Shown: positions 39 to 53,296 of the stretch, in pieces
Position numbering within the stretch: the first letter of the stretch is position 1
Layout of the letters: every line of letters begins with the position of its first letter
IMG/VR virus record: IMGVR_UViG_3300049484_000358
Coordinates: 1-53,296 of that record
Length of the DNA: 53,296 nt
Strand: one strand, 5' to 3'
Source of the DNA: a virus
Lineage: Duplodnaviria; Caudoviricetes
Made by a program: the position numbers and the translations under genes
The notes under the pieces: model-generated
Databases searched by the model: none
Told to the model about the DNA's origin: nothing
Seen by the model: only the letters and a program-made list of their open reading frames with translations

Positions 39-65
39 CCGGAAGATGTTTTTCAATCTAGATAT

Positions 66-110
66 ATCATACTCCTTTTTTGTAATGAAGAACATCAGCT
101 ATTCTGTCAC
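66..110 (-). promoter_or_regulatory. Putative leftward early promoter (TGACA box, -10 TATGAT) reading across the genome junction into ORF 53241..52927
   Basis: On - strand: GTGACA-33 nt-TATGAT, close to the 31-32 nt spacing of five other early promoters. Confidence 0.45.
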
Positions 111-142
111 TTTTTGTAATGAAAGATTTTCAATGTTTTTAT

Positions 143-322
143 ATGACATTCATTACATTTGTCATGCCAAGTAGTATGACATTTGTAATATTTTGTCATA
201 TTTTATGACATTTGATGTGATTGTAATGGTGTTTCATATGATTGTCATGCTGAAAAGCTGATGAAAGTAATTAAAATGTGTAACATTATACAAGAATGAA
301 TGTCACATTATACAACCTGACA
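143..322. repeat. AT-rich array of TGTCA/TGACA boxes (operator- or iteron-like)
   Basis: About 8 copies, including palindromes TGTCATG-N8-TATGACA (160-181) and TGTCATA-N3-TATGACA (194-210). Confidence 0.7.
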
Positions 323-549
323 TTTGACTCTTTTTATCATGATTTTTATTTCCAGCAGTGGACAAAGCCCGAAAATAATTTTTGGGGAAAATTTGAAAAT
401 CATTTTCGGCGGCTCCCAGCTCTCCGGTTCCCTGTGCACAATTCACACCGATTACGTTAATTGTCTACAAACTGAAAATCTAAAAGTTTAACAATTAACA
501 CCTGTTATCTGCACAACTGCACACCTGACCACCACCAAGAAACTGCTAG

Positions 550-589: not shown

Positions 590-679
590 TAAACAGGCAG
601 CCGGTCTGCAGTTCTACTCGCACCTTTGCCTCTCCACGCTTTCGCGTGAAAACCCTGCTGGCAATGACCAAGGAGCACC

Positions 680-1414
680 ATGCCCTCTTACGATTTACTT
701 CACCACACTGCCCAAGAGCAACATTTGACCGACCTTGAGCTGCGTTTTGTTATGCAATACTTAATTCATTTCAATGCAAAACGAGCCGCCGCAGAGGCGG
801 GGTACAATAGTGATCGACCTGGCGGCATAGCCGCTGAACTACTGCATAAACCCTATATCGTCAACGTCATCAAACAACGAATGAAAGACATGGTGATGGA
901 CGCCGACGAGGCCCTCGCCCGCTTAGCAGCCATTGCCCGGGCGGACATAACCGACTTTTACACTCTAAACCCTGCTACTGGTTTTTGGGAACCCGACATC
1001 CAGAGAATCAAAGACTCTGGAATGGGCTTCCTCGTTCGCAAAATTGAGCAAAACCGCTTCGGGACGTTAAACGTGGAATTCTACTCCGCCACAGAAGCTA
1101 TCCAATTAATCGCTAAGAATTTGGGCCTGCTTAAAGACGTGCCGCAGATCAACTTGAACGTGGCCCTTGGTGAATGGGCCCAATTCGTCAAGAAAGCCCG
1201 TGAACTGCCCCAGCCGGTTTCCAAGCTGCCGCCCGGTGCGGAAGAGGCTTACGCAAAACTCCGCCGTGACGTGGCGAACGCCGACATCGACCCCATGTCC
1301 ATCGGCCACTCCATCGATTCCATCGGAGATCCCACGCAACCCCTGCCAGACTCCACTTTGGCGGACATCATCGATGGCACCTTCACCGACAAACCCACCA
1401 CCGAAACCGACTAA
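680..1414 (+). CDS. terS: Terminase small subunit
   Basis: RFV..YL..FNA.RAA..AGY HTH motif; RBS AAGGAG; directly upstream of terL. Confidence 0.9.
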   Translation: MPSYDLLHHTAQEQHLTDLELRFVMQYLIHFNAKRAAAEAGYNSDRPGGIAAELLHKPYIVNVIKQRMKDMVMDADEALARLAAIARADITDFYTLNPATGFWEPDIQRIKDSGMGFLVRKIEQNRFGTLNVEFYSATEAIQLIAKNLGLLKDVPQINLNVALGEWAQFVKKARELPQPVSKLPPGAEEAYAKLRRDVANADIDPMSIGHSIDSIGDPTQPLPDSTLADIIDGTFTDKPTTETD

Positions 1415-2880
1415 TGCAGCAGTCCCAAACCCTCACGGACTCCGACATCGACGCCTCTCTCCGCGAGGCGGAAATCTCACCCGCTGACGTGCTCTTCGAT
1501 CCCGAAGAATTCGCTGCCCATTTCCTGTGGATTCTCAACAAACAAAAGCAATCCACCCTGCTCCGCTACAACGCCGCCCAACGCCACTTCATGGCCCACC
1601 GAACTGGGCGTGACTTAATACTTAAAGCTCGCCAACTGGGTTTCTCCACCGCTGTGCAAGGCGAGATGTTCCGCCGCGCCATCACCAGTACTCGTACCAC
1701 GATGACAATGGCGCATGACGATCAAACCACCCAAAAACTCCGCCGCATCCAGGAACGGTTCTGGGAACACTGCCGCATCGCCACCGTCCAACCCGCCCGG
1801 GCCATCTCTAATGCGGTGTTGGTAACCTATCCGGACTTCGACTCCACTTGCGTAATTGCCACTGCTGGTTCGAAGGAAGCGGGTCGTGGTGACACATACA
1901 CTGACTTCCACGGCAGTGAAGTGGCATTCTGGCCCGATGCCGAACGCATCCTCGCAGGCGCGATGCAGGGTGGTGATCCCGACGTCGTACTCGAGTCCAC
2001 ACCAAATGGTTCCGTTGGTTGGTTCTATGAACGATGTATGGATGCCATGCGCGGTGATCCCACGTGGAAACTCCATTTTTATCCGTGGTGGTGGGACGTA
2101 GACTACAAACTGCCGCTCGCCGAAAATGAAAAGTTGGAATTCGACGATGAGGAAAAATATCTAATCGGTGAATACAACCTAACGGCAGAACAGATAAAGT
2201 GGCGCCGAAAAAAGAAAAGTGAACTCAAACGCCTCTTCCCACAAGAATATCCCGAATCACCCGAACTCTGTTTCCTCGGCAGTGGCGATTCCTACTTCGG
2301 TGACATCGAACGCTCCTTCGCCGCTCCCGCTTACGCGGAACCCAAACTGCTGTCGGAAGTTCGTGAATCAGGATTGGAAATTCCGCCTCACAAATACTCC
2401 GCCGGCCTCGACTGGGGCCAAGAAAATGATTACACTGTACTGTCAATACTTGACATCACTACAAAACAACAAGTGGATTTGTATCGAGTTAATCGACTCA
2501 GCTGGGGTGAAATTCGCAAACGCGTCGCCACCCGTCTCCATCACTGGGGTATCAAAACAGTCGTGGCGGAAGCCAACAGCATCGGCAGTGTAAACATCGA
2601 AGAACTTCGCAAACTCGAAATTTCCGTCGTCCCCTTCAACACCACCAACACCACCAAGTCCGACTTAATGTCCGACTTGTACAACGCTCTCCACGAAGAA
2701 AATTTAACCCTGCTGTCGCAACCTGACATCAAACACCAATTCAATTCATTTGTATCCACAAAACTTGCATCTGGTGCATGGCGCATCGCTGCCTCTGGCC
2801 ACGGCCACGACGACATCGTAATCGCCACCGGCCTTTCGTGGTTTGCGCGCAAATACATAAAGGTGCAAGTATGGCCGTAA
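1414..2880 (+). CDS. terL: Terminase large subunit
   Basis: LKARQLGFST Walker A, SEVAFW Walker B, ESTPNG coupling motif, GLDWG and HDDIVIA nuclease motifs. Confidence 0.95.
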   Translation: MQQSQTLTDSDIDASLREAEISPADVLFDPEEFAAHFLWILNKQKQSTLLRYNAAQRHFMAHRTGRDLILKARQLGFSTAVQGEMFRRAITSTRTTMTMAHDDQTTQKLRRIQERFWEHCRIATVQPARAISNAVLVTYPDFDSTCVIATAGSKEAGRGDTYTDFHGSEVAFWPDAERILAGAMQGGDPDVVLESTPNGSVGWFYERCMDAMRGDPTWKLHFYPWWWDVDYKLPLAENEKLEFDDEEKYLIGEYNLTAEQIKWRRKKKSELKRLFPQEYPESPELCFLGSGDSYFGDIERSFAAPAYAEPKLLSEVRESGLEIPPHKYSAGLDWGQENDYTVLSILDITTKQQVDLYRVNRLSWGEIRKRVATRLHHWGIKTVVAEANSIGSVNIEELRKLEISVVPFNTTNTTKSDLMSDLYNALHEENLTLLSQPDIKHQFNSFVSTKLASGAWRIAASGHGHDDIVIATGLSWFARKYIKVQVWP

Positions 2881-3197
2881 AAGTCGAACCCCAATTAAAA
2901 CCCACTGCTGGCATGATCACCATTCCAATTACCTATGGTATTTGGATTATTGGTCAAGGATGGCTTCGTGACACCAACGGCCGTTACTTCGCAGACCCCC
3001 GACTCGACTACGCCAAAACTGCACTGAAAATGTGGGTGGTAAACAAAAACACTGCGCGCATTGAACTGATCGACGATAGTATGATCGGTTTACAATCATT
3101 GTTTATTGAACGAGAACGGTATAAAATTGAACAGCGTGCAAGTAACAAGTCGTTGTTGTCCCGATTACGGAGATACTTATATGGCTTACTGGGATGA
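2871..3197 (+). CDS. Hypothetical protein (108 aa)
   Basis: ATG at 2871 overlaps the terL end; fills the gap to the portal gene. Confidence 0.6.
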   Translation: MAVKVEPQLKPTAGMITIPITYGIWIIGQGWLRDTNGRYFADPRLDYAKTALKMWVVNKNTARIELIDDSMIGLQSLFIERERYKIEQRASNKSLLSRLRRYLYGLLG

Positions 3198-4737
3198 ATT
3201 ACGCCAATCAGATGCATACAAACCGTATACGGGAGAAAAAACCCACTCTACGGCTTTCGCCGCTCAATATCCACTTTATGAGCAGCAAACACCACAATAC
3301 ACTTCGCCCTCACCTTATTCACTAGCGCAGCAGGGTTATCGTACCAACACCCTAATTTACGCATGCATTGAAAAACGCCTGCGTGCTGTCGGTGGTGCAC
3401 CGATGCTCATTTACGATACCACATCATCTTTGCCAACAGTTGTGAATGGGCTTAAAGAGCACGGGGTTCTAAAGAATCCCAATGATCGTTTAAGTGAGCG
3501 GCAGTTCTGGCAGATCACCCAATTATATCTCGACATCTCAGGCTTTTCCGCCTGGGAAATCGAATTTAACAATGCTGGTGAACCAATTCGTTTATGGCCG
3601 ATGCGCTCCGATTGGTGTTCGTTTATGCGAGGCGACGGCCGTCCACTGCGTGCCGTCCGCTACCAGCCATACGGACTTCCATACCAAGACATACCGATCG
3701 AAAACGTCCTACTCTTCCAGTACTTTGATCCGCTCTTCCCACTGCTGAAAGGCTATAGTCCGACTATGGCCGCCCTGCGGGATATTTCTGTCGATAGCGG
3801 TATGACCCAATTCCTGTACAAATTCATTAGTGAAGGTGCGAGATTTTCCGGGTTGCTCACCACCGAACAAGACTTAGATGACATTGAAGCGGAACGCATT
3901 AGACAACGGTGGACCACCCAGCATGGTGGTGTTGAAAATTGGAATAACATCGCCGTACTTGGTCGTGGTGCTTCGTACCAAAACACCAGCATGAGTTTTA
4001 ATGATATGGCTTTTCCAGAACTCGATGGACGTACTGAAGCGCGCATTTGTATGGCATTCGGAATTTCACCAATTCTTATTGGTACCAAAATTGGTCTTGA
4101 TGCTTCAACATACTCCAACTACGCGCAAGCTCGTCGGGCGTGGTATGAAGAGTGGGTTACACCGCAGTGGGAATTCTTAGCCGAACAGTTTGGGTCACAA
4201 ATGCTTCGAACAGAAAAACCTGGTGGCGTGTATGTTGCAAATACCGCATACTCCTGTGCATTCAATACCAGAAATGTAGCCGCCCTGCAAGAGAATAGGG
4301 ACTTAGCATTTCGCCGTGCAGTATCCGCCGTGCGCGCGAACCTGCTCACTCGCGATCAAGGCCTGCAGGAAATTGGTCTCGATCCCGTGGATAACAAACG
4401 TGTTTACATCGGCGCCGCAATCCGTGTCGGCGAAGATACCACCGGAACGTTACTATCAAATATCGAGGGAGTGGATATCGACGATATAACTCCAGATGGT
4501 GAAGATTCACAAGGAGACTTTGCAGTTACCAATAGTGTATTTGGTACCGGTAAAGAACAGCAGTTTCCAAATGACCTGCAAACGGCAGATCCAGCGCAAG
4601 CGTTGGAAGAACGGCAGTTTAAAGCTTTCGCCCACAAACGCATTCGTGAAGGTAAACCCGAAGAGCTTCACAACTTCAGTTGGAAAAACACGCCTCCAGC
4701 GCAAATACCCCTGCTGATTGAAAAATATTCAAAATGA
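3181..4737 (+). CDS. Portal protein (HK97-like)
   Basis: RBS GGAGA before ATG 3181; NPN..LS..QFW, P.RLWP, GYSP, ICMAFGISP.LIG..STYSNY motifs. Confidence 0.93.
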   Translation: MAYWDELRQSDAYKPYTGEKTHSTAFAAQYPLYEQQTPQYTSPSPYSLAQQGYRTNTLIYACIEKRLRAVGGAPMLIYDTTSSLPTVVNGLKEHGVLKNPNDRLSERQFWQITQLYLDISGFSAWEIEFNNAGEPIRLWPMRSDWCSFMRGDGRPLRAVRYQPYGLPYQDIPIENVLLFQYFDPLFPLLKGYSPTMAALRDISVDSGMTQFLYKFISEGARFSGLLTTEQDLDDIEAERIRQRWTTQHGGVENWNNIAVLGRGASYQNTSMSFNDMAFPELDGRTEARICMAFGISPILIGTKIGLDASTYSNYAQARRAWYEEWVTPQWEFLAEQFGSQMLRTEKPGGVYVANTAYSCAFNTRNVAALQENRDLAFRRAVSAVRANLLTRDQGLQEIGLDPVDNKRVYIGAAIRVGEDTTGTLLSNIEGVDIDDITPDGEDSQGDFAVTNSVFGTGKEQQFPNDLQTADPAQALEERQFKAFAHKRIREGKPEELHNFSWKNTPPAQIPLLIEKYSK

Positions 4738-8839: not shown

Positions 8840-9220
8840 ATGAACTCCAAACAGTACGAAGTAAAAACCCTGCTGAACTCCGCAGGAGCCACCCAAGCGG
8901 CGGCTGGTACCACTCAGGATCTTGGATCTTCACCGTCGATTCAACGGCGTGAGGTGAAGGTTATCGTTGGGTCCCAGGTTTTGACAGCCGGAACTTTCCC
9001 GCTGACCTTAACCGAATGTGACACGACCAACGGGACGTTCTCCGCCGTCGATGGTGATTCTATTGTCAGTGTTACGGCGACTCAGGCCGCTGTGGCTGTG
9101 GCCGAATACCACGTCAAACCCGCCAAGCGGTACATTAAGGCCTCGATCGGAACCGTCTCCGGTACCGGTGCCGCCGCAAACCTGCTTGTTTTGATGCTGC
9201 CGCTTAAACGGCACGCTTAG
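8840..9220 (+). CDS. Probable head decoration / virion protein
   Basis: Small beta-rich protein after the capsid gene (L.ECDT..G.F, KRYIK). Confidence 0.55.
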   Translation: MNSKQYEVKTLLNSAGATQAAAGTTQDLGSSPSIQRREVKVIVGSQVLTAGTFPLTLTECDTTNGTFSAVDGDSIVSVTATQAAVAVAEYHVKPAKRYIKASIGTVSGTGAAANLLVLMLPLKRHA

Positions 9221-9242
9221 TCCAGTCTCCCTCATTCTGGGC

Positions 9243-9272
9243 GTCCCGGCGGTTAGCAATAACCGCCGGGAC
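9243..9272. terminator. Strong hairpin after capsid/decoration genes (13 bp stem, GCAA loop)
   Basis: GTCCCGGCGGTTA-GCAA-TAACCGCCGGGAC followed by an A-run rather than a U-run, so it may stabilise the transcript rather than terminate it. Confidence 0.6.
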
Positions 9273-9282
9273 AAAAAAGAAA

Positions 9283-40808: not shown

Positions 40809-40870
40809 ATTATACTACATCGGACTAACGTTGGGACACTGTCCATTGTCATGTATTTGACATGACCATT
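40809..40870 (-). promoter_or_regulatory. Early promoter with GTCATG-N7-CATGACA box
   Basis: TGACA-32 nt-TATAAT on - strand. Confidence 0.75.
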
Positions 40871-44262: not shown

Positions 44263-44278
44263 TCCTTGTGGGTGTAGA

Positions 44279-44317
44279 AGTCCGGCCGGAACAAGTGGAA
44301 ACCTGTCCGGCCGGACT
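44279..44317 (-). other. Long GC-rich hairpin 3' of paralog 1
   Basis: AGTCCGGCCGGA...TCCGGCCGGACT, 12 bp perfect. Confidence 0.7.
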
Positions 44318-44342
44318 CGACGCGGGAAGGATACCCGAAGTC

Positions 44343-44855
44343 TTAGGCGTGATCGACGATAACAGTCTCGTCAGCAGTCGCGGCCGCAACATCAGCGGTT
44401 GTTTTAGCGACTTTTTCTTTCTTCACTTTCGGGGTCTTGACCGGACGAGGATGGGTCTCGTCAAACCAGCGATCGTCGGCGGCGATGATGCGACCAACCT
44501 CACCAGCGGACCTGCCGGCCAGAGGGCGCAGGTATTCTTCGGACATAAAGTATGCAGTGTTAGCTGCACGATTCAGCGAGTAAGTCTCGCCGCGGGTGGA
44601 GCACTGCATATACTTACGCAGGTAAGAAGCGGTGATGATCACACCGCTATCGTTGTGGATACCCCACGGATTCGGACCTTCAGGAAGTTTCGGTGCTTTG
44701 ACCTTCGCTTCGCCGGCGGGTTTGGGGGCTTTCGCTTTCTTTACTTTGGCCGGGGCAGCTTCAGTCGCCGCTGCTTCTTCCGCCATGATGGCGTCCAGGC
44801 TCAGGCCGTCGTTGTTCAAGCTGTCTTCAATATTTTCCATAAAATCTTTCGCCAT
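44343..44855 (-). CDS. Early protein, paralog 1 of an unknown family; Lys/Ala/Pro-rich tails
   Basis: WGIHNDSGVIITASYLRKYMQC...NRAANTAYFMSEEYL; RBS AAGGAG. Confidence 0.8.
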   Translation of the reverse strand: MAKDFMENIEDSLNNDGLSLDAIMAEEAAATEAAPAKVKKAKAPKPAGEAKVKAPKLPEGPNPWGIHNDSGVIITASYLRKYMQCSTRGETYSLNRAANTAYFMSEEYLRPLAGRSAGEVGRIIAADDRWFDETHPRPVKTPKVKKEKVAKTTADVAAATADETVIVDHA

Positions 44856-44923
44856 TGTGAACTCCTTGGTTCGTAAAAAGGTTGGATACGATGCCTGCTC
44901 GGCAGGTTTTTGACTATAGAATA

Positions 44924-44990
44924 ATTATACTCCCATTTGACCTCCAGTGTAACTAACAAATGTCATGCAAGTAACATGACCATTGTCACG
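44924..44990 (-). promoter_or_regulatory. Early promoter with GTCATG-N7-CATGACA box
   Basis: TTACAC-17-TATAAT; TGACA 31 nt upstream of -10. Confidence 0.8.
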
Positions 44991-45336
44991 CGTTTTCCGC
45001 GGGGATCGGCGACAAAGGTTGCCAATGAGTTATCCACGAATACATATCACCGTGGTAAAACACACCGTCGGTAGTAGACCATTGTGGTATTGACGCAATG
45101 TGATACGCCACGTGACGACTGTTATTAGATCCGTCGAATACCAGTACCCGTTCATAATCCAGCGGCAGGGTTTTACTAACTGGAACCCATTCAACGAATT
45201 CTGCGCGGAGTGCAGTCACACACTTTTCGAGATATGATTCTTCTTGAACAAGGTCAGATCCCCATCGTCGATTTGCTTTAACGGTTTGGGCGGCTCGGAT
45301 TACTTTGTCGATTAGCAGGTCTATACCCGTTTTCAT
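44986..45336 (-). CDS. DUF551-domain protein
   Basis: WVPVS..LP...RVLV ... ITHWQPL. Confidence 0.75.
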   Translation of the reverse strand: MKTGIDLLIDKVIRAAQTVKANRRWGSDLVQEESYLEKCVTALRAEFVEWVPVSKTLPLDYERVLVFDGSNNSRHVAYHIASIPQWSTTDGVFYHGDMYSWITHWQPLSPIPAENA

Positions 45337-45489
45337 TTAACGGCCGTTCTTTTTCTTCTCGGCTTCACGACGTTCACGATTGGCGATCTGTACACGAATG
45401 TCTTCGCGTCCATCATCACGTTTGGTAGCCACATCGCGGGTGTCAGTCTTTGGTGCCTGCTGTGGCGGGGTCTGGGGTTTGGTTGGCAT
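45337..45489 (-). CDS. Small charged protein
   Basis: RBS AAGGAG before MPTKPQ. Confidence 0.5.
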   Translation of the reverse strand: MPTKPQTPPQQAPKTDTRDVATKRDDGREDIRVQIANRERREAEKKKNGR

Positions 45490-45766
45490 GTGTAATCTCC
45501 TTTGGAAGTTTGATTCGCATCTGGTCATGTCGGCGGATAATGAACCGCCGAGTCGGATCAGTTTTTAAATACGCGATACACGCCTGTTTGTAATGCACTG
45601 CTGGTGTTGGATTAGAAATTGCAATGCGTTTGTTGCAAATCCTACACTTATACACATCGGATGCGTACAAAGCACTGGGTATGCTACTGTTGTCCATCGT
45701 CAGCAGTTGTATGCCATTATATTCGACGATCATTTCTGCTTCACAGTCAATACATACTGGATACAT
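45443..45766 (-). CDS. Zn-ribbon protein
   Basis: C..C..EM ... D.Y.C..C; RBS GGAGG. Confidence 0.6.
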   Translation of the reverse strand: MYPVCIDCEAEMIVEYNGIQLLTMDNSSIPSALYASDVYKCRICNKRIAISNPTPAVHYKQACIAYLKTDPTRRFIIRRHDQMRIKLPKEITHANQTPDPATAGTKD

Positions 45767-45820
45767 TATTCCTCCACTTCTTCATCGGCTGGATTTTTTG
45801 CGTATTGTGCAGCGTATTCT

Positions 45821-46132
45821 TTAGCTTTCATTTTCAATCCTCCGGATGGCTTCGTGCAAGCAGTAGTTGAAGTGCCGGACTACATTCCTTGCCATAAGGA
45901 TAGAGTTGCCTGCAACCATTACCCAGCCGTCTGGCGTAGCGTCTGCAACCTGGGTAGCCGGAACAGTTTCTGACTCTGGCCAAGCCAAATCCCGAATCGT
46001 GACAGTTTTGTCTTGAATTATGACACGGCCTTTACAACCACCATTCTTCGCTTCCGAACACGTGCATTTGAAGGTGTGTGGTTTGTCATAACCATATGCA
46101 TAGTCGCCGATGTTTACTTTTCCAGTCGCCAT
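45821..46132 (-). CDS. Hypothetical protein
   Basis: RBS AAGGAG. Confidence 0.55.
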   Translation of the reverse strand: MATGKVNIGDYAYGYDKPHTFKCTCSEAKNGGCKGRVIIQDKTVTIRDLAWPESETVPATQVADATPDGWVMVAGNSILMARNVVRHFNYCLHEAIRRIENES

Positions 46133-46479
46133 GGTTCGTTGTCTCCTTCGTCATCATACTCGTACCCTGCTTTATCGTTACGTGCATTGCAGTATGCGCA
46201 AGTACCGAAGTCGTCTTCACCCTGCGGCGGCATAGGGCACGGATTACCGCAGTTGAAACACGGAATGTAGTAAACGCATGTCAATGCAACTTTGATGCAG
46301 GCATCTACATCGGCTACCAATTTCCAATACAGAGCAAACGGCAGCAGGGTTTCGTTGGGGGATCCCTCATTTATGCGGTAGCAGGGTGTTTGGATGAGTT
46401 CACCATCGGGCAAGGTGGCATCACGCATTTCGAGGGTGGCCGGTAGTAGGTCACTTGGGTTTTTATCAAGCGGGGTCAT
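46114..46479 (-). CDS. Hypothetical protein with C-terminal Zn finger
   Basis: CFNC ... CAYC; RBS GGGAGA. Confidence 0.55.
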   Translation of the reverse strand: MTPLDKNPSDLLPATLEMRDATLPDGELIQTPCYRINEGSPNETLLPFALYWKLVADVDACIKVALTCVYYIPCFNCGNPCPMPPQGEDDFGTCAYCNARNDKAGYEYDDEGDNEPWRLEK

Positions 46480-46798
46480 AGTCAATCTCCCAGATTGGAA
46501 CGTGTAAGTCACCATTGAAAATGGAAATTGTGGTGGTAGTGACTACTGATTTTACAGCATCCACACATTCAACCATACTGCCGGGCAGCAGGTTTTCGCA
46601 GGCTTCTACGATTATGGAAGCTTCCAAATAACTTTCAGTGAACCACGGGACACCGGCCATAGGTTCAATAAATTCTTTGACATATGCTATCCGTGGATTG
46701 ACATGCGATATGATTATCACATCTTTCACGAAGAATTCTACACCAGGACCTACGTCCACGTGTACCATATATCCGTCTTTGAGCAAGGTTTTTGGCAT
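46466..46798 (-). CDS. Hypothetical protein (tandem paralog A2)
   Basis: Y.V...PGV...V ... VVTTTT..F shared with the upstream gene. Confidence 0.6.
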   Translation of the reverse strand: MPKTLLKDGYMVHVDVGPGVEFFVKDVIIISHVNPRIAYVKEFIEPMAGVPWFTESYLEASIIVEACENLLPGSMVECVDAVKSVVTTTTISIFNGDLHVPIWEIDYDPA

Positions 46799-46799
46799 A

Positions 46800-47099
46800 T
46801 TACACCTCAAATGAATATTCAGTGGTGGTCGTAATCACACGGGAAATTGGTACGATTATAACTGTCGCCGACACAAACAGTTGATTTAAATGCGTCTCAA
46901 CTTCTTCTGCAGCTGAACGATTCGCAAAAACAAACGGCGGTTCTTCGCTTTCTAAGTGTATTGAAGACGCCACAAAGTCGTTGTTGCAGTCTTGTTCTAT
47001 TCCAGTGACAATTAAGTCTACGCCAGGAAAACCGATGCACACGACATATGCAGTAGAGTCGCGTCTATCGACTGGTGGATTAATCATTTTGGACCCCAA
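46800..47099 (-). CDS. Hypothetical protein (tandem paralog A1; start may be 47087)
   Basis: YVV..PGV..IV ... VITTTT..F. Confidence 0.6.
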   Translation of the reverse strand: MGSKMINPPVDRRDSTAYVVCIGFPGVDLIVTGIEQDCNNDFVASSIHLESEEPPFVFANRSAAEEVETHLNQLFVSATVIIVPISRVITTTTEYSFEV

Positions 47100-47554
47100 T
47101 TCATCAGGTGTTCGTCGTCCACCAAATCAGCGGGGTTGAATGGATCATCACTTAAGCGAGGATCGTCTGCATATTCGGATAAACGACAGGCGGAGTCATA
47201 ATCTGATTCCACGTTTAAGTCGATGCCTGCTGTGGCGAGTGCATCTTTGGCGAGCAGCAGGATTTGATCGCCGATAGGCAGTCCCAGTTCAATTAGTTGG
47301 ACCAGGTCAAATAGGTGGGTGGCGAGTAGTGGGGCTGCGGCAGCGAGGACAGCGTCGGTTTCCTTGCGGAAGGGAGCGGCGTGTTCGCGCCAGCAGGCTA
47401 CATCATAGTTGGGAGTGAAGATTTCCCATCCTTCATGGCGGATGATGCCGCCGGAAGGGTTGAGCTTGCGAGACTTCCACGGACCGGGTGTAGCGGTGGG
47501 TGGATAAGCGGGTGGTTGCAACATAGTACTCCTTTGCGGTTTATTCTGTGGCAT
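47084..47554 (-). CDS. Phage protein with TPGPW / A.L.AAAP motif
   Basis: TPGPW...DA.L.AAAP.L pattern common in phage early proteins. Confidence 0.65.
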   Translation of the reverse strand: MPQNKPQRSTMLQPPAYPPTATPGPWKSRKLNPSGGIIRHEGWEIFTPNYDVACWREHAAPFRKETDAVLAAAAPLLATHLFDLVQLIELGLPIGDQILLLAKDALATAGIDLNVESDYDSACRLSEYADDPRLSDDPFNPADLVDDEHLMNWGPK

Positions 47555-48017
47555 TCATTAGCTCCCAGATTTCGTACAGTTTGGGACAGCTGGTTTGGAA
47601 TACATCAGGCATTGGTGTTTCATCACCGACAATAGCATTCAACGCGTCTCGGAAGTTGGTTAACGCATTGAGGAAAATGTATCGATTGTGGTTGTACCGG
47701 GTAGCAACCAGTCGATCCTCGTCACCAAACTGCTCAGTGAATCGGATCATTTTGATTGGTACAATAGACACCGCATAAAACCAAAAATGTGCATTGTCAT
47801 CCAATGCACCACACGGTATGAATTCTCCTGGAACCCATGTACCGACGCCATCATTGTAATATCCCCCTTTGTATTCGGAGGAATATGCAGGAGTGAACCG
47901 CCCAACAGCATATGATAAGTGATGACTTTCATGCGCATCTCTAGGATGTACGGCAATAACAACGCCATCGAAGGATTTCAATTCTTTTGGGGTTTGTATA
48001 CCGGAGGGTGTTTGCAC
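47541..48017 (-). CDS. Hypothetical protein
   Basis: GTG 48017 with RBS AAAGGA, in frame with the 230 aa ORF. Confidence 0.5.
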   Translation of the reverse strand: MQTPSGIQTPKELKSFDGVVIAVHPRDAHESHHLSYAVGRFTPAYSSEYKGGYYNDGVGTWVPGEFIPCGALDDNAHFWFYAVSIVPIKMIRFTEQFGDEDRLVATRYNHNRYIFLNALTNFRDALNAIVGDETPMPDVFQTSCPKLYEIWELMNATE

Positions 48018-48088
48018 AGCAGGTTTTCCTTTCAGTTTGTATCGTTTTCGAACATTTCTCGCCAGCAGGCTTCGATGTCCGGGAAGCG

Positions 48089-48247
48089 TTAGAGTTGGCC
48101 GGTGCGATAGGCCCATAGGGTGAAGCATAGCGCGAGCATGAGCATCCACGCAATGACGCCGTAGATAATGACGATGCCATATTTGCGGTAGGCCAGGATG
48201 GCGGATACGGCGAACAAGACAGCGAGAACCCATGCAAATGTAGTCAT
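48089..48247 (-). CDS. Small 2-TM membrane protein (52 aa), not in ORF track
   Basis: MTTFAWVLAVLFAVSAILAYRKYGIVIIYG...; RBS GGAGA; first gene after a promoter. Confidence 0.7.
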   Translation of the reverse strand: MTTFAWVLAVLFAVSAILAYRKYGIVIIYGVIAWMLMLALCFTLWAYRTGQL

Positions 48248-48285
48248 TTCGAATCTCCCATTGGTTTATTCTTCATCATGTAATG

Positions 48286-48350
48286 ATTGTAACACATCGG
48301 GTGGTCGTTGGAGAACAGACCATTGTCATGTTTTTTATATGACCATTGTC
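48286..48350 (-). promoter_or_regulatory. Early promoter with GTCATA-N7-CATGACA box
   Basis: TGACA-32 nt-TACAAT. Confidence 0.75.
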
Positions 48351-48357
48351 CTCCATT

Positions 48358-48621
48358 TCATGATAGGAAAAACCACAGCAGGGTGTATACTATGATGATG
48401 ATTATGCCGATCCCGAGTAGTTTGCAGATGAGAGTGAAGAGGGTTGAGACTAAGTGATTGGTGAAGTCTTTCACGGGATCGCCAGCAGGTGTATTCGCGT
48501 GGGCGTGGGAGGGTCCTTCGAGAGAGGCGAGAGCGGCGGCCAACTGCTGGGCGGGTGGTATGTCGGGGTTGAAGCGATCGTAGAGGCCGGGTGCATCATT
48601 TGTGGGTGGTGTGTCAGTCAT
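48358..48621 (-). CDS. Membrane protein
   Basis: C-terminal TM segment. Confidence 0.55.
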   Translation of the reverse strand: MTDTPPTNDAPGLYDRFNPDIPPAQQLAAALASLEGPSHAHANTPAGDPVKDFTNHLVSTLFTLICKLLGIGIIIIIVYTLLWFFLS

Positions 48622-49075
48622 TGGAGTCCAACCCGTGGATGCCGGAGTTACCGTTGGAGTAGTTGCCGATTTCCCGTTCGTTGAAGATGACGGTGAAGTT
48701 GCCAGCGTAAACGAAAGTCACGAACCGGAGGGCGGGAACCGTTTCGATGAAAGCCAGGTGCAGTTCCAGGTCGTTTGTTGGGTGGTGTGCATTTATGCGA
48801 TTGACTTGCGCGTTGGTGAATGTGTAGGAGTAAGATTCTCGCTCCGCGAGGGATTGATGCAAGTCGTGCTCTGGTGCATTACACGCGTCACAGCAGTGCC
48901 AATTACATTTGCATTTTCCGTCCTGCGGACGGAAACCAGAGACTAGGTCTCCGATGCGGAGGAACCATTGGGGTGTACCACAGAAGCGGCAGTATTCTTT
49001 CAATGGAACATTGGCGCGGTGGTCGCCGTCCAGCAGGTTTATTGGGGAGAGTTGGGGAGAGGGAAGGGTGGTCAC
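48614..49075 (-). CDS. Cys-rich Zn-binding protein (paralog B2)
   Basis: CRFCG.P..F ... CC.AC...EH; GTGA overlap with the upstream stop. Confidence 0.6.
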   Translation of the reverse strand: MTTLPSPQLSPINLLDGDHRANVPLKEYCRFCGTPQWFLRIGDLVSGFRPQDGKCKCNWHCCDACNAPEHDLHQSLAERESYSYTFTNAQVNRINAHHPTNDLELHLAFIETVPALRFVTFVYAGNFTVIFNEREIGNYSNGNSGIHGLDSND

Positions 49076-49341
49076 GGGAGTGGGTCCTTTGTTGGGGTGG
49101 GTTGGGGCGGTGAAATTTTTCGGTTTACCGGAGGAGTGAGTAGTTGGAAGACGACGTACTGGTGGGGTTTGTAGTGGCGGGCGGTCATGCCGGTGGTGAC
49201 GTCGTCGAGAGTGTTCCACACGTGGATCTTCGGTCCATCTGTGATGGGATACCCCTCGATAGACACGCATACGAAGATGGGCATGTGGGCCGGGACGGCA
49301 GGTGTAGTGTTCGCGGGAGCGGGAGGGGGTGTATTAGTCAC
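49072..49341 (-). CDS. Hypothetical Pro/Thr-rich protein
   Basis: RBS GGAGG; coupled to both neighbours. Confidence 0.55.
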   Translation of the reverse strand: MTNTPPPAPANTTPAVPAHMPIFVCVSIEGYPITDGPKIHVWNTLDDVTTGMTARHYKPHQYVVFQLLTPPVNRKISPPQPTPTKDPLP

Positions 49342-49786
49342 GAGGCCTCCGGAAGGGGGTTGCGAATTGGGGTTGGTTGGGTTTGGTTATTGGGGTGATG
49401 TCGGCTTCATCGAAGTTGATGACGAGTTGAGTACCAAGTACATAGTGACGGACGAAGGCGAAGGCGGGTAGGATGCGTTGGACAGCAGTGGGTTCGTTTA
49501 CTTCGCCTTCGTTGAGGATGCGGGTGATGGCTGAGTATTGTTTTTCAGTCATTGCATACCAACCAGGTGTGCGGCTTACGACGACGGTGTGTTCGCAGTG
49601 CTCAAGGCGCCGGCAGGCCGGGCAGCAGGGTAGATGTGCGGTGCACATTCCCCACCGAGTGTTTTTGTAGACAGGGGTGCCTTGGGGAATGAAGCGACGT
49701 GGTTGGCCGCAGGTGCGGCACATGATCAGCAGGGGGATTTTAGCAATCATGCCTGGCCGATATTCTAGCAGTGTCATTGGTTCCAT
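49334..49786 (-). CDS. Cys-rich Zn-binding protein (paralog B1)
   Basis: CRTCG.P..F ... CC.AC...EH; RBS GGAGA. Confidence 0.65.
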   Translation of the reverse strand: MEPMTLLEYRPGMIAKIPLLIMCRTCGQPRRFIPQGTPVYKNTRWGMCTAHLPCCPACRRLEHCEHTVVVSRTPGWYAMTEKQYSAITRILNEGEVNEPTAVQRILPAFAFVRHYVLGTQLVINFDEADITPITKPNQPQFATPFRRPRD

Positions 49787-49809
49787 AGTAATTCTCCGGG
49801 TGTGAAATG

Positions 49810-50203
49810 TAGAACATTTGTCTTGGGCAGTTATTACTTTATAAGGCCTGATTCTATACTTAAAGGGTAAGAAAATTGATTTAGAAACTTAATAGAAACA
49901 GGCCTGCTATCAGAACAACTGCCCAGGACATTTGTTCTAATTGACTGCTATGCAGCAGTTTGGCTTGAAAAACCTGCCGTTGGTGTGTCATTTGACTCCA
50001 AAAAACCTGCGATCGGTACACAAATTTGGCAAAGTAGTTTTCTTGTAATAGAGATGCTCCTTCTAAAGTTATCGTTGTAATTTTCTGGTAGCCTTTACTG
50101 TTCATGGATTTGAGTTCAGGCCTTATTTCAGAAAACTTTTCTGTTTTTTACTGAATAACTGCACAACTGCCCAAGACAAATGTTCTAATAATCTTGGGCA
50201 GTC
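49810..50203. repeat. AT-rich non-coding region with nested inverted repeats (origin-like)
   Basis: Perfect 23-bp inverted pair 49810-49832/50165-50187, a third copy with 3 mismatches at 49917-49939, and an ATAAGGCCTGA/TCAGGCCTTAT pair. Confidence 0.8.
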
Positions 50204-50207
50204 GGTA

Positions 50208-50459
50208 TTATTTGGCCAAGTCGAGCTTCCAGATGAACAGCGCAACAAGTCCGAGTCCTAGCAATTGCCATACAACATCAGGCATTGGGTTATCCTCTCA
50301 ATCGTAGTAGTCCGAGTTTATCCAATAGTACGAACAATACGCAGACGGCGAGTAAGCTTGCGGCTTCGGTGCTCATTGCGGGATGTCATTCTTGTTCACG
50401 AAGCTGAATGCACCAAACAGTACGATGATTACGGCTACGGCAATGTATATTGCGATCAT
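50208..50459 (-). CDS. Three consecutive 25-28 aa hydrophobic peptides (50459-50373, 50376-50290, 50285-50208)
   Basis: RBS GAGAGGA before the first and third, ATGA coupling for the second. Confidence 0.6.
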
Positions 50460-50506
50460 GGTATTATCCTCTCGATTTGTTCTCAGTTTGTTCTCGGTGA
50501 AACGAC

Positions 50507-50545
50507 TATAGCCCGGCAGCTCAGTTCAGCAGATGCCGGGCTATA
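50507..50545 (-). other. 12-bp hairpin between early genes
   Basis: TATAGCCCGGCA...TGCCGGGCTATA. Confidence 0.7.
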
Positions 50546-50552
50546 TGGGTGA

Positions 50553-50768
50553 TTACTTTGATGCGTACTTGATCATGATGCGTCCGAGGCGTTTGTGGCC
50601 GCAGACGAGGTACCAGAACTTCCAGAAATTAGCGATAGTCTTCAGCACAACTAGCACTGCTGGGTCTTTCGCCAGTTCGGCAAGTTCGCTTTCCGCGAGT
50701 TGGGTGTTCAAATCCCACTCAGCATCGGTTACAGGGCGTTTGACAGCTTGATCACGAAAGTCAGACAT
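50553..50768 (-). CDS. Small phage protein with WY...GHKRLGR motif
   Basis: RBS AAGGAG, ATG 50768. Confidence 0.7.
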   Translation of the reverse strand: MSDFRDQAVKRPVTDAEWDLNTQLAESELAELAKDPAVLVVLKTIANFWKFWYLVCGHKRLGRIMIKYASK

Positions 50769-50802
50769 GTTGAGTCTCCTTTGTCGAAGTGCTTGAGTAT
50801 GG

Positions 50803-50916
50803 GTAGCATCTTCGCGCTCCCTCACTCCGTGGAATGAGGATGAGCAAAACTGCTACAGCGTTTGGGCCGCGGTCCCGGTGCCCGGATCCCTGCTGTCAGG
50901 TAATCCGGGTCACCGG
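50803..50916 (-). ncRNA. Two long hairpins 3' of paralog 2
   Basis: CCGGUG-a-CCCGGAU..CCUG-ACAG-CAGG..AUCCGGG-CACCGG; GUAGCA..UGCUC..CCUCA/UGAGG..GAGCG..UGCUAC. Confidence 0.6.
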
Positions 50917-50938
50917 TGGAACGACCGGGTGGAGCCGA

Positions 50939-51574
50939 TTATTCAGATATTCCCAGGGATTTCGCCAGAGCATCGATGGCATCGGTCTTGCTTGCCACGA
51001 TATCTTCCATCTCAGCCTCTGCCTGGGCTTTCTTCGATTTCCCCTTGGGGGCTTTCGCAATCGCAACCGGCTCGCCAGCGGGCCCGCTCACGATTTCAAT
51101 TTCCGCAACCTTCGCAACTTCGGCAGCCAGTTCAGCGTCGTCCACGACCACTTTCTTCGGGGTCCAGACACCGTCGATGAGTTCGAACTTGGTCATCAGT
51201 TCGGCCATCATCGCGGGAGTTACCCGGTCAACCGGTGAGCCGGCGGACTTGCGAGCGGCGGAGCGGCCAGCGGCCTTGTCGGCATCCGTCCGTCCCCACA
51301 GTTCGCTGAGCGACGCGGCCTTGCCAACCTGCGAAGCCGTCTTGCCGCGCTGGGTGGCGAGGAATTCGTCGGACATGAAGAACGCGAAGTTCGCGTCGCG
51401 GTTCTGGGTGAAGCCGTCACCCGAGCGGCACCAGCACTGGATGTACCGGCGGAGGTAAGCATCGGTCACGATCTCGCCCCGGCCGTTTTTGATCCCGTAC
51501 TTGTTGGCGTTGTCGTCGGTCTCGCTCGCTGCGAATTTGACGAAGGTCTTGGTGGTTCCAGCATTGTCGGTCAT
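50939..51574 (-). CDS. Early protein, paralog 2 of the unknown family
   Basis: YGIKNGRGEIVTDAYLRRYIQCWCRSGDGFTQNRDANFAFFMSDEFLA; RBS AAAGGAG. Confidence 0.85.
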   Translation of the reverse strand: MTDNAGTTKTFVKFAASETDDNANKYGIKNGRGEIVTDAYLRRYIQCWCRSGDGFTQNRDANFAFFMSDEFLATQRGKTASQVGKAASLSELWGRTDADKAAGRSAARKSAGSPVDRVTPAMMAELMTKFELIDGVWTPKKVVVDDAELAAEVAKVAEIEIVSGPAGEPVAIAKAPKGKSKKAQAEAEMEDIVASKTDAIDALAKSLGISE

Positions 51575-51589
51575 TTCAAATCTCCTTTG

Positions 51590-51745
51590 AAAGATTGGAC
51601 TGGGAGAATTCCCATTCACCTGCCCAGCAGTTGCACGGTGGGCCTTGCGGCAATTGGCACTGCTGAGCACGTGGGTGGGAACTCACCACCCAATTGTTAT
51701 TCGATTTTTAAGGTTCGGAAGCTGGGGAAAATCCCCGTTGCTTTA
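51590..51745 (-). ncRNA. Structured ~170-nt 5' leader of paralog 2
   Basis: UGCUCAGCAGU/ACUGCUGGGCA stem with GCC-GCAA-GGC; GAGUUCCCA/UGGGAAUUC competing with UGGGUGG/CCACCCA. Confidence 0.6.
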
Positions 51746-51758
51746 TTCTTACAAGATC

Positions 51759-51825
51759 ATTGTACCATATTGAGTGATCACTGGGGAACTAACATTTGTC
51801 ACGCAATGATCACTCAATTGTCACG
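51759..51825 (-). promoter_or_regulatory. Early promoter with TGACA boxes
   Basis: CGTGACA-32 nt-TACAAT with extended TG. Confidence 0.75.
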
Positions 51826-51829
51826 CAGT

Positions 51830-52042
51830 TTAGAACGCGGTATTGAACCAATCTTTGAACTCAGCCACGGTGTTGAAATACAACTGGACCAGTTCCAAAT
51901 TTCCTTCGAGACTCGCAAAATCTTCGAACTTATCAACGCAGTGTTTTGATTCGGATGCTTCGGTCACAAGTGAAACATTCTCAGTTTCGATAGTGAATTC
52001 GAATTTATTCCCGTTTTCCTCGGCAAGTATTTCGATTTTCAT
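51830..52042 (-). CDS. Small acidic protein (70 aa)
   Basis: MKIEILAEENG..., very E/D-rich. Confidence 0.6.
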   Translation of the reverse strand: MKIEILAEENGNKFEFTIETENVSLVTEASESKHCVDKFEDFASLEGNLELVQLYFNTVAEFKDWFNTAF

Positions 52043-52050
52043 TGGGTTCC

Positions 52051-52311
52051 CTATATGTTTCGCAGATTGTTTTTCTTTGCGCAATCGACGCAAACGTCGA
52101 TGTCGCGCATGTTGCGTACGCAGTGTTTTATGTACGTCATCGAGAAGCCATAGTTGCAGATTTCGCAGTAACCTCGACCTCCGTCCGAACTGTTCATTGT
52201 GTCTTGCCGGATTTTCTCCGGACTTGCATAGCCGCGACGCCCAGACTTACCTCGCGGTAAATCTACTATTCCATTCTGACTCGGATAAGATACTCGATTC
52301 CAATTATTCAT
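52051..52311 (-). CDS. Small Zn-finger protein
   Basis: CEIC ... CVDC; first gene after a promoter. Confidence 0.55.
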   Translation of the reverse strand: MNNWNRVSYPSQNGIVDLPRGKSGRRGYASPEKIRQDTMNSSDGGRGYCEICNYGFSMTYIKHCVRNMRDIDVCVDCAKKNNLRNI

Positions 52312-52364
52312 ACTCTACTCTCTTTCGCAATCTCGAATGTTCGATCATATTTCTTATTATACTC

Positions 52365-52410
52365 ATTATAACGCGCAATATGATTGAGTGTAACGTACTA
52401 AATGTCACTC
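52365..52410 (-). promoter_or_regulatory. Early promoter
   Basis: GTGACA-32 nt-TATAAT; TTACAC-17-TATAAT. Confidence 0.75.
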
Positions 52411-52475
52411 ATAAAGGCTTCCAATATCATGGTTTATTACGTGACAAATGTCAGGCATCGGGCCATGACGTCGGG

Positions 52476-52681
52476 CAGTGACTCACGTGACAAAGGTCAC
52501 TGCTGGGCCGACAGACTATGCGTCGGCGTGCGCCCCGACGCTTCGCTTCAAAAAGTATCGGGGCATCGGGCCCCCACGATCGAGTAACTCGCACGTCCGC
52601 CACGGGCGGAATACCCTCAAAATGAGGGTCCCGTAGCGGGACCGAACTATTCAATTGTCGGGTTAGTCACCTCCCCGATAT
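52476..52681. ncRNA. GC-rich string of hairpins (unnamed structured element)
   Basis: At least 7 hairpins, four with 3-nt loops (52581-91, 52596-610, 52613-29, 52627-43). Confidence 0.55.
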
Positions 52682-52685
52682 TCTG

Positions 52686-52841
52686 TTACCAACCCATAAC
52701 TTTGGCGAACAACTCGATACCATGGGCACTGGGCCCTCCCATCGTGGGGACGTGGAGCGAAGCACCAGCCGAACCGAACACAGTCACTAGGACTAGATAC
52801 GCAACGCCCAGCAGTAACATAACCAACAGTAGCTTTTTCAT
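52686..52841 (-). CDS. Small secreted/membrane peptide (51 aa), not in ORF track
   Basis: MKKLLLVMLLLGVAYLVLVTVFGSAGA...; RBS AAGGAG. Confidence 0.65.
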   Translation of the reverse strand: MKKLLLVMLLLGVAYLVLVTVFGSAGASLHVPTMGGPSAHGIELFAKVMGW

Positions 52842-52854
52842 TGGGAACTCCTTC

Positions 52855-52922
52855 AAAAGTATTGGGCCTCATCGGCACCCGCACTCACGGGTGGACCGGG
52901 GATCGCACCCCCGGTTTCGGCC
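52855..52922 (-). ncRNA. Type II hammerhead ribozyme (U4C core variant)
   Basis: GGCC-GAAA-CCGGGG-loop-CCCCGG-UC-CACCCG-loop-CGGGUG-CCGAUGA-GGCC; GUC cleavage triplet; possible pseudoknot between loop I and the 3' tail. Confidence 0.8.
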
Positions 52923-52926
52923 TGTA

Positions 52927-53241
52927 TTACTGGGCGTCAACCAAGCTGGCGTTCACGAAGTCCTTGCGGGCGTCGCGGGCGGGTTTCGCGGGAGCCGCGT
53001 TCCAGCGGGGGGACAGAGAGGCGAATTTCCCGATTTGCGAAGCCGTGGCACCCGGGTGGGCGGCAAGGAACTCGTCGGACATGAAGTACTCAATGTTGGC
53101 CTTGCGGTTGTGGGTGAACCCGTCGGACACCCGGCACCAGCAGTGGATGTAGCGGCGCAGATAATCTTCGGACACGACATCGCCATCACTGTTGACGATA
53201 CCAAACCGATTCAAACCAAACTTCTCGAATTTCGTAGCCAT
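52927..53241 (-). CDS. Early protein, paralog 3 (minimal domain) of the unknown family
   Basis: FGIVNSDGDVVSEDYLRRYIHCWCRVSDGFTHNRKANIEYFMSDEFLA; RBS AAAGGAG. Confidence 0.85.
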   Translation of the reverse strand: MATKFEKFGLNRFGIVNSDGDVVSEDYLRRYIHCWCRVSDGFTHNRKANIEYFMSDEFLAAHPGATASQIGKFASLSPRWNAAPAKPARDARKDFVNASLVDAQ

Positions 53242-53296
53242 GATGATCTCCTTTCAAGATCAGAGGGGGGGGGGGGGAGGTAGTTTTTTTTCAATA

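Follow-up and report, generated by a model that had tools for sequence, protein, structure and literature searches.

Why does one phage genome keep three copies of a gene family that could not be recognized from its sequence, each copy followed directly by a strongly folded RNA element? The question is raised by IMG/VR virus record IMGVR_UViG_3300049484_000358 (class linear, CheckV completeness 98%), which we analyzed over its whole length of 53,296 nt, referred to here as the window, and which represents the near-complete genome of a siphovirus-like phage. Its three paralogous genes are called p1, p2, and p3. An original prediction, made from the sequence alone, had presented them as a candidate new system in which each paralog leads an early transcript and has a dedicated RNA element behind its stop codon. 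What we found is a new protein family, and its genes follow a known type of design for phage gene expression. Whether the three genes are high-dose early expression cassettes, with mRNA ends set by interchangeable RNA elements, is in our assessment about evenly balanced.

Three paralogous genes and their predicted early promoters

A search of the record with p3 retrieved p2 (E=5.8e-30, 57% identity) and p1 (E=2.9e-14, 35% identity). The three proteins share a domain of ~80 amino acids (aa); all three open reading frames (ORFs) lie where they had been predicted (Table 1), and alignment shows the predicted motif in each of them. The ATG of each paralog is preceded at 6–7 nt by AAGGAG or AAAGGAG, in line with the strong ribosome-binding sites (RBSs) described earlier. 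Among 68 ORFs, p3 and p2 have the two highest GC contents at third codon positions (GC3), and p1 (0.59) also exceeds the capsid gene (0.56), which agrees with the GC-rich codons that had been noted. The tails are likewise real, p1 having a Lys/Ala/Pro-rich stretch and p2 a net-acidic C-terminal tail. The picture of multi-copy genes of the early region, built for high output, was thus upheld. In relatives, all nine p3-type genes for which GC3 was computed reach 0.58–0.73 at a locus GC of 0.40–0.47, and p2-type genes reach 0.45–0.70.

A collection of 5.8 billion clusters contains 15 homologs of p3, all of them metagenomic and without names. Using a profile built from 18 rows, we found 62 representatives at E<=1e-3 among 1.84 billion entries (55 of them at E<=1e-10), exclusively in metagenomes or viral contigs. 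No family member was detected in 185,579 prokaryote species genomes, and there is thus no sign of prophage copies; tblastn of phage GenBank records gave no family match either. Scans of p1, p2, and p3 against Pfam, PHROGs, and NCBIfam returned nothing relevant, the family profile had 0 matches among PDB sequences at E<=10, no family recurred when the 71 members were all scanned against Pfam at E<=10, and none of the 62 representatives has a Pfam domain above threshold. Judged by its absence from Pfam, PHROGs, NCBIfam, the PDB sequences, and the source annotations, the family is new and uncharacterized. That it had not been recognized before is consistent with this, the only likeness to a characterized domain being a weak ATP-cone-like fold resemblance (Z<=4.5). 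Within the family, the core is up to 89% identical between contigs and the motif is nearly invariant. A Pfam scan of 41 long relatives yielded a sole candidate domain fusion, P0052 (259 aa), which combines a divergent family domain with a C-terminal HExxH motif (SprT-like Pfam match of 19.4 bits, cut-off 25.6). P0074, a 1912-aa repeat protein of the type IX secretion system, was taken as a spurious member.

In a quick maximum-likelihood tree with SH-aLRT (Shimodaira–Hasegawa-like approximate likelihood ratio test) supports, the p1-type sequences form a clade of 12 rows (support 96) and the p2-type sequences a clade of 39 rows (94), and the p3-type sequences constitute a short-branched grade. 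The copies residing together belong to different subfamilies in every multi-copy locus. In contigs of sufficient length, two co-oriented copies keep the same order, p3-type then p2-type in the related loci L005, L008, L009, and L011, and p2-type then p1-type in L014. On this tree, p1, p2, and p3 are three old subfamilies with one member each in the window. Since different subfamilies are found together in conserved order, the triplication appears to be old and maintained, which argues for non-redundant roles.

Upstream of the genes, the composite promoter pattern TGACA-N28-35-TAYAAT occurs six times in the window, with 0.72 copies expected and 0/100 shuffles reaching six. TGACAWWTGT is found seven times (1.03 expected), and plain GTGACA shows no genome-wide enrichment (25 vs. 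30.8 expected). Five of the six composite copies lie on the minus strand, where they lead p2, p1, an ORF with CxxC motifs, a 52-aa membrane ORF, and the helicase gene; the copies at 44965-44924 and 51801-51759 directly precede p1 and p2. Hexamers of the sigma-70 type (GTTACA-18-TATAAT, 10/12) are present upstream of p1 and of the CxxC ORF, and the p2 promoter combines TACAAT with a poor -35. Its layout recurs in L005, L008, L009, L011, L016, and L017. Of the 18 family genes whose upstream sequence is available in relatives, 9 are preceded by the exact pattern and others have a variant -10, and a strong Shine-Dalgarno sequence precedes the gene in every relative examined. The promoter class is therefore real and conserved. 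It is the early promoter of the phage and no mark of the family, because three other minus-strand copies lead the CxxC ORF, the membrane ORF, and the helicase gene; the tie between TGACA boxes and the family was thus not supported in the form proposed.

The earlier statement that each paralog is the first gene after such a promoter is correct for p1 and p2, and for p3 it depends on the joining of the window ends. In L004, an ortholog of the small terminase subunit gene terS (44% identity, E=2e-44) is divergent from a p3-type gene, with a box-rich spacer of 726 nt between them. Joining the ends of the window would produce the same divergent layout with a terS-p3 spacer of ~700 nt. This agreement in layout and spacer size suggests that the ends very probably join.

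RNA structure at the boundaries of the family genes

To compare the 3' flanks, we used the folding energy of the 90 nt after the stop codon at 68 ORF 3' ends. The flank of p2 takes rank 1 and that of p1 rank 2, the three paralogs together occupying ranks 1, 2, and 4; at rank 3 is a small gene that follows the capsid gene. Calculated by hand, the probability for three given genes to fall into the top four is 4/50116. Likewise, all eight 60-nt windows of <= -27 kcal/mol on the minus strand between 27 and 53 kb lie within the three cassettes. The z-scores given here are based on dinucleotide shuffles, which control only partially for the high local GC.

The claim that structure follows each stop codon directly was borne out, with refinements: what had been described as a 12-bp hairpin behind p1 has 18 pairs, 12 of them forming a perfect stem, p2 is followed by a branched hairpin and a second one, and p3 by a hammerhead ribozyme. 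Within 16 nt behind the p1 hairpin lie the RBS and ATG (44262) of the next gene, and the distance to the next promoter downstream is 3.4 kb. Together with the lack of a U-tract, this means that transcription must read through the hairpin. Reading the p1 and p2 hairpins as intrinsic terminators was rejected, as neither has a U-tract and a terminator scan did not call them. Sites combining a hairpin with a U-tract do occur elsewhere, namely after the L004 ortholog and, as a pair (52643-52627 and 52574-52560), at the close of the unit containing the 51-aa ORF downstream of p3. The p2 leader of ~175 nt is also structured in part (Table 1), and this part is not conserved in L008, which has an AT-rich leader. 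A weak Rfam match to the "DUF2815 RNA" in this leader (E=4.9) was set aside as chance.

The element behind p3 has the architecture of a type II hammerhead. Helix II consists of GGCC/GGCC (4 bp), helix III has 7 bp and helix I 6 bp, and the minimum free energy fold gives a three-way junction. The core contains GAAA, the pair A15.1-U16.1, and a GUC cleavage triplet, with CCGAUGA instead of CUGAUGA, i.e., C at position 4 (C4), and cleavage is predicted between 52894 and 52893. The Rfam model Hammerhead_II (RF02276) matches with 25.3 bits (E=0.12 in 9.5 kb; gathering score 37). A covariance model trained on 104 distinct phage hammerheads with U at position 4 (U4), each <=75 nt and termed R1, gives a partly circular 58.8 bits and makes the element its sole strong match in the window, the next scoring 8.1 bits with filters off. 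Both alignments cover the full models. Searching IMG/VR with a pattern derived from the p3 hammerhead, which allowed C or U at position 4, we obtained at least 120 loci. Among the 138 matches listed, 123 have U and 15 have C at this position, and 13 of the latter have both stems intact as judged by eye. Alignment of the 104 U4 sequences shows a clear type II class, in which the stems covary and the helix I loop is conserved. Judged by these alignments, the p3 element truly belongs to a type II hammerhead class that is common in phages, and it represents a recurrent natural core variant. The predicted hammerhead after p3 therefore stands as one true hammerhead, with the provisos of a sub-threshold Rfam score and a C4 core. 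An unrelated virus, the 67.6-kb IMG/VR contig L020, carries eight type II hammerheads within ~4 kb (174-4009), two of them C4.

How constant are these elements among relatives? We fetched 15 related loci and ran a family hidden Markov model (HMM) over 138 loci comprising the window pieces, these relatives, and 120 hammerhead loci. Matches were confined to the window pieces and the 15 related loci. None of the 120 other hammerhead-bearing viral loci among the matches listed (~1.0 Mb) encodes the family, which speaks against a general linkage of family and hammerhead. Six loci of the L006 group, representing three distinct sequences, share a 22-pair stem in the 3' flank with compensatory changes at 4 pairs; this element has no Rfam match at E<=1 and no hammerhead core by eye. 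When 10 further flanks from relatives were folded, four reached z<=-4.2, three lay at about -2.2, including the L004 intrinsic terminator, and three showed no structure. Among the 15 related loci, only L005 has a hammerhead (41.7 bits, also C4). It lies between a 71-aa ORF and the Shine-Dalgarno sequence of the p2-type gene and is thus upstream of a p2-type rather than downstream of a p3-type gene. Family-gene boundaries thus tend strongly to be structured, by interchangeable means and without a fixed pairing of protein and ribozyme. The idea of genes followed by unusually strong RNA structure is supported by the ranks in the window and by the compensatory changes in one group, whereas a dedicated family-hammerhead system is not, given the lack of the family in the other hammerhead loci, the non-equivalent site of the L005 hammerhead and the three unstructured flanks out of 10.

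In the reading that we favor, each cassette would consist of a conserved promoter with a weak -35, whose TGACA box precedes a TAYAAT -10 by ~32 nt, of a consensus Shine-Dalgarno sequence, and of a coding sequence that, for p3 and p2, belongs to the most GC3-rich of the genome. The RNA element directly past the stop codon would fix and protect the 3' end of the cistron's mRNA as RNA polymerase continues into the downstream genes. The long hairpins of p1 and p2 are plausible sites for RNase III or barriers to 3' exonucleases. Upon cleavage by the hammerhead, the p3 mRNA would terminate in helix III and carry a 2',3'-cyclic phosphate, and helix I with a 5'-OH would form the beginning of the RNA for the downstream 51-aa mini-cistron. 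The same position is taken in relatives by the conserved 22-pair stem, by other hairpins, or by an intrinsic terminator, and the L005 hammerhead instead separates the p2-type gene from the ORF upstream of it.

Designs of this kind are known. In phage T7, RNase III sites lie in intercistronic stem-loops, and early mRNAs end in a stabilizing 3' hairpin as transcription continues. By analogy, the p1 and p2 hairpins (18 to ~25 pairs, no U-tract, and for p1 the next RBS within 16 nt) may be comparable sites. T7 has RNase III sites between all of its early genes, whereas structures of this kind in the window mainly follow the three paralogs.

In prophages, hammerheads are found beside short blocks of genes or individual genes, and a role in processing long phage transcripts has been proposed for them (PMC3088659). 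The p3 element resembles these in being a type II hammerhead in an intercistronic gap with a proposed transcript-cutting role, and its class, with a GGCC helix II and a conserved helix I loop, is shared by the at least 120 IMG/VR loci. It differs in occurring only once, at the 3' end of one gene, and not in flanking pairs or triplets, in having C instead of U at core position 4, and in being replaced by hairpins or a terminator at orthologous positions. A 2019 review calls the role of phage hammerheads unresolved (PMC6765202).

Alternatively, genes and RNA elements might have no functional link. In that case the genes would be ordinary early ORFans of the lineage, the hairpins would act as partial terminators or simply result from GC content, and the hammerhead would be a sporadic insertion, as are many in phages. 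This would fit the absence of the family from the other hammerhead loci, the occurrence of just two hammerheads, at non-equivalent positions, in the window and 15 related loci, the three orthologous flanks that folded without structure, and the use of TGACA-box promoters by the CxxC ORF, the membrane ORF, and the helicase gene. It would also agree with Perreault et al. (PMC3088659), according to whom hammerhead-flanked genes vary in identity. The ranks of the paralogs among 68 flanks, the compensatory changes in the L006-group stem, the recurrence of post-stop structure in most orthologs although the sequences are unrelated, and the location of both hammerheads exactly at a family-gene boundary argue against such a coincidence, which we regard as rather unlikely.

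Several observations nevertheless weigh against high-dose cassettes with interchangeable RNA ends. The p3 hammerhead falls below the Rfam gathering score, and the R1 set was chosen by a pattern from the window element, by which construction ~22 invariant positions match and the E-value of R1 overstates independence. Judged by its core, the C4 variant could be slow or dead. High GC alone lowers folding energies, and the 3' flanks concerned have a GC content of 0.58–0.66. No hairpin follows the p2-type genes of L009 and L011 or the p3-type gene of L005 (z between +0.4 and -1.1), and the p1-type genes of relatives, with values of 0.34 and 0.37, show no raised GC3. On the protein side, the net charge of the core (median +2, range -6 to +6) makes it no more than mildly basic, and strict Lys/Ala/Pro-rich tails are present in 8/71 members, counted with a filter that misses p1 itself.

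Table 1. Positions of the three paralogs and of associated RNA elements, promoters, and neighboring features in the window.
Feature	Position	Strand	Description
p3	52927..53241	-	104 aa; conserved domain nearly bare plus short tail; GC3 0.77; Shine-Dalgarno AAAGGAG 53254-53248
p2	50939..51574	-	211 aa; domain, long Pro/Ala/Glu-rich linker, basic patch, C-terminal amphipathic helix; GC3 0.75; Shine-Dalgarno AAAGGAG 51588-51582
p1	44343..44855	-	170 aa; acidic then Lys/Ala/Pro-rich N-terminal stretch, domain, basic/acidic tail; Shine-Dalgarno AAGGAG 44867-44862
Type II hammerhead	52865..52922	-	58 nt, 5 nt after p3 stop
p2 3' element	50843..50937	-	branched hairpin 50937-50856 (main stem 50926-50865) plus small second hairpin; -47.8 kcal/mol, z=-3.1
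p1 3' hairpin	44278..44318	-	18 pairs (12 perfect), -40.8 kcal/mol, z=-5.4, no U-tract
Structured part of p2 leader	51594..51694	-	-57.4 kcal/mol, z=-4.7, 0/200 shuffles as stable
p2 promoter	51759..51824	-	tandem GTGACA 51824-51819 and 51802-51797, 32 nt, TACAAT 51764-51759
p1 promoter	44924..44989	-	GTGACA 44989-44984, TGACA 44965-44961, TTACAC-N17-TATAAT, -10 at 44929-44924
Putative p3 promoter	across joined ends	-	TGACA 109-105, 33 nt, TATGAT 71-66
Box-rich spacer	60..360		minus strand; between terS (start 680) and p3 if ends join; holds putative p3 promoter
51-aa hydrophobic/membrane ORF	52686..52841	-	ATG 52841, GAAGGAG 7 nt before; 3' of predicted hammerhead cut

Possible functions of the proteins

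If each copy is a high-dose early cassette, as in the reading that we favor, the proteins are probably required early, and in amounts that are stoichiometric rather than catalytic. What they bind would, by our best guess, be a macromolecule, namely a nucleic acid or a host protein. A known parallel in format is p6 of phage phi29, a small (~100 aa), abundant, DNA-organizing early protein. Members of the family are also small early proteins expected at high copy number, some with Lys/Ala/Pro tails like those of bacterial histone-like proteins; they differ from p6 in lacking homology, in their near-neutral core, and in forming three conserved subfamilies instead of being encoded by one gene.

Two AlphaFold2 models of p3, based on alignments of 18 and 71 rows, reached a mean predicted local distance difference test (pLDDT) score of 80.7 and 82.5, respectively, with the core above 90 and a low-confidence tail. 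Both show a beta-hairpin at ~8-23, helices at 25-35, 46-53, 56-61, and 67-75, and a short turn at the invariant Trp80, and the domain is accordingly modeled as a beta-hairpin plus four or five helices. In these models, the segment GKTASQIGK forms one continuous helix, and its reading as a helix-turn-helix (HTH) was discarded. The tails are of low complexity: p1-type and some other members have Lys/Ala/Pro-rich stretches, and p2-type tails consist of Pro/Ala/Glu linkers, a basic patch, and a conserved amphipathic C-terminal helix. A homodimer prediction for p3 scored 0.02, a value that counts neither for nor against dimerization. Foldseek searches with both models against PDB and with BFVD as target returned nothing at E<=1. 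A wide search with VIA-align, in which the best matches of typical unrelated proteins reach Z 7–8, gave no hit of Z>=5 for either model. Matches in the ESM Atlas (scaffold, protease, YonD) had low feature overlap and were treated as noise.

The best-ranked neighbors with both aligners and both models are ATP-cone domains (Z up to 4.5, below significance). The proteins might accordingly have a degenerate ATP-cone-like core and act as early regulators or sponges that sense a nucleotide or second messenger. VIA-align places ATP-cones at ranks 1, 2, 3, 6, and 15 for the first model and at ranks 1, 2, 4, 7, and 15 for the second (Z 4.5–3.4, 67–72 residues, root-mean-square deviation 3.4–5.8), the best matches having sub-significant Z values of 4.5 and 4.4 over 69 residues with deviations of 3.6 and 3.5. 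In Foldseek, the top five hits of the first model and eight of the top nine of the second are ATP-cones of NrdR or ribonucleotide reductase (RNR). The core and the ATP-cones would agree in topology, with four helices after a beta-hairpin that has a conserved Gly turn, and on the models the domain resembles the ATP-cone (PF03477; NrdR and RNR allosteric domains) in its size of ~80–90 aa and its beta-hairpin plus four-helix bundle. However, all scores are below significance (Z<5, Foldseek E>1). The PF03477 HMM has no match in the record at E<=10, whereas 13/14 control genomes match, 0/71 members match it, and the family profile finds nothing in PDB at E<=10. Moreover, the Lys-Arg pair of the ATP-cone hairpin, which we take to contact the phosphates, is replaced here by a variable residue followed by an invariant Asn. 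Unlike ATP-cones, the family lacks sequence similarity to them and stands alone with disordered tails, with no fusion to an enzyme or zinc ribbon. A sensing role of this kind is improbable on these grounds.

We also considered that the proteins are transcription or RNA-polymerase-binding factors, sigma-2-like or appropriators, which act on their own TGACA boxes in autoregulation or in a switch from early to middle expression. Every cassette has tandem TGACA boxes ~22 bp apart at a fixed distance to the -10, the spacer beside p3 is packed with boxes, and three subfamilies could serve three promoter classes. Region-2 domains of extracytoplasmic function (ECF) sigma factors, which come next after the ATP-cones (Z ~3–3.8), and chains of the T4 late-transcription complex recur among the weak fold matches (Z 3.0–3.8), at the level of noise. 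In addition, the proteins have no sequence similarity to HTH or sigma families, their promoters must be active before any of the protein is made, and the boxes also precede unrelated genes. It seems quite unlikely to us that the family consists of such factors.

A role as host-takeover or anti-defense effectors, i.e., as stoichiometric inhibitors or decoys that use disordered tails and the amphipathic helix as docking peptides, would suit genes at the start of early transcripts in a phage for which no prophage copies were found, a diversification into subfamilies with fast-changing tails as is typical of arms-race proteins, and the candidate SprT-like fusion of P0052, but the high conservation of the core is unusual for arms-race effectors and makes this role very improbable.

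We return to high-dose early proteins with a macromolecular target. In its most complete form, this reading would describe a class of phage proteins that has not been described before, with a fold lacking a significant PDB match and possibly being a nucleotide-insensitive ATP-cone offshoot, and the first natural case in which a hammerhead, RNase III-type hairpins, and a terminator are interchangeable at one gene boundary. That all of these parts hold together is, in our view, rather unlikely. If they did, the lineage would offer a ready-made comparative system for the purpose of phage hammerheads, which would be to define and stabilize mRNA ends independently of the host. The presence of a ribozyme in one phage and of hairpins or a terminator in its relatives at one gene boundary suggests functional equivalence that can be approached directly by experiment. 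The protein family, for its part, is conserved in three copies among the early components of a metagenomic phage lineage and has no annotation. Identifying its target would add a new function in early infection; otherwise it is one among very many phage families without an assigned function.

Genome layout and further observations

PHROG matches assign terS, terL, portal, major head protein, and tape measure genes to the plus strand (680-26907), and helicase, family-A DNA polymerase (PolA), primase, and nucleotide-metabolism genes to the minus strand. From 53241 to ~40900, the minus strand carries a block of small ORFs nearly without family matches, as is typical of an early region. The phage is probably lytic. 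DNA and protein searches of GenBank phages found no record similar to the window, a tRNA scan of the window detected none, and an Rfam scan of the window gave no match at the gathering threshold.

Both ends of the window contain homopolymer runs, a C-run followed by a G-run at 8-38 and a G13 run near the 3' end (53260-53296), and around these runs the two ends show an imperfect resemblance over ~32 nt. A circular or permuted genome was probably broken by the assembly within a G/C run, and an artefact may account for the palindromic C/G run with which the record starts. Dense TGACA/TGTCA arrays in both orientations, with many inverted repeats, occupy 60-360 of the window, 2490-2800 of L004, and 2700-2900 of L005. 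They sit in the spacer between terS and the p3-type gene, a position conserved across relatives, and could be operators, an origin, or a packaging region.

The ORF with CxxC...CxxC motifs (86 aa, 52051-52311, minus strand) has no family match and its own TGACA-box promoter (52407-52365). It is a conserved neighbor downstream of p3-type genes, as in L005 (3738-3976) and L008 (936-1247). The fifth minus-strand TGACA-box promoter (40809-40851) lies directly upstream of the helicase gene, and the replication module thus appears to share its promoter class with the earliest genes.

Several very small hydrophobic ORFs with good Shine-Dalgarno sequences are scattered over the minus strand of the early region, at 52686-52841, 48089-48247, 50373-50459, and 50208-50285 (51, 52, 28, and 25 aa, respectively). 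The first is directly 3' of the hammerhead, and the second is the first ORF after the promoter at 48328-48286. An AT-rich palindrome of ~94 nt (49828-49921) matches microRNA models on both strands at chance level; the matches of such models to palindromes were discarded as chance. The gene-poor stretch around it (49830-50200) contains the repeated CTGCCCAAGA / TCTTGGGCAG inverted repeats. On the plus strand, a hairpin of 13 pairs (9216-9275, -35.4 kcal/mol) follows the small gene next to the major head protein gene and looks like a terminator or stabilizer of the capsid message.

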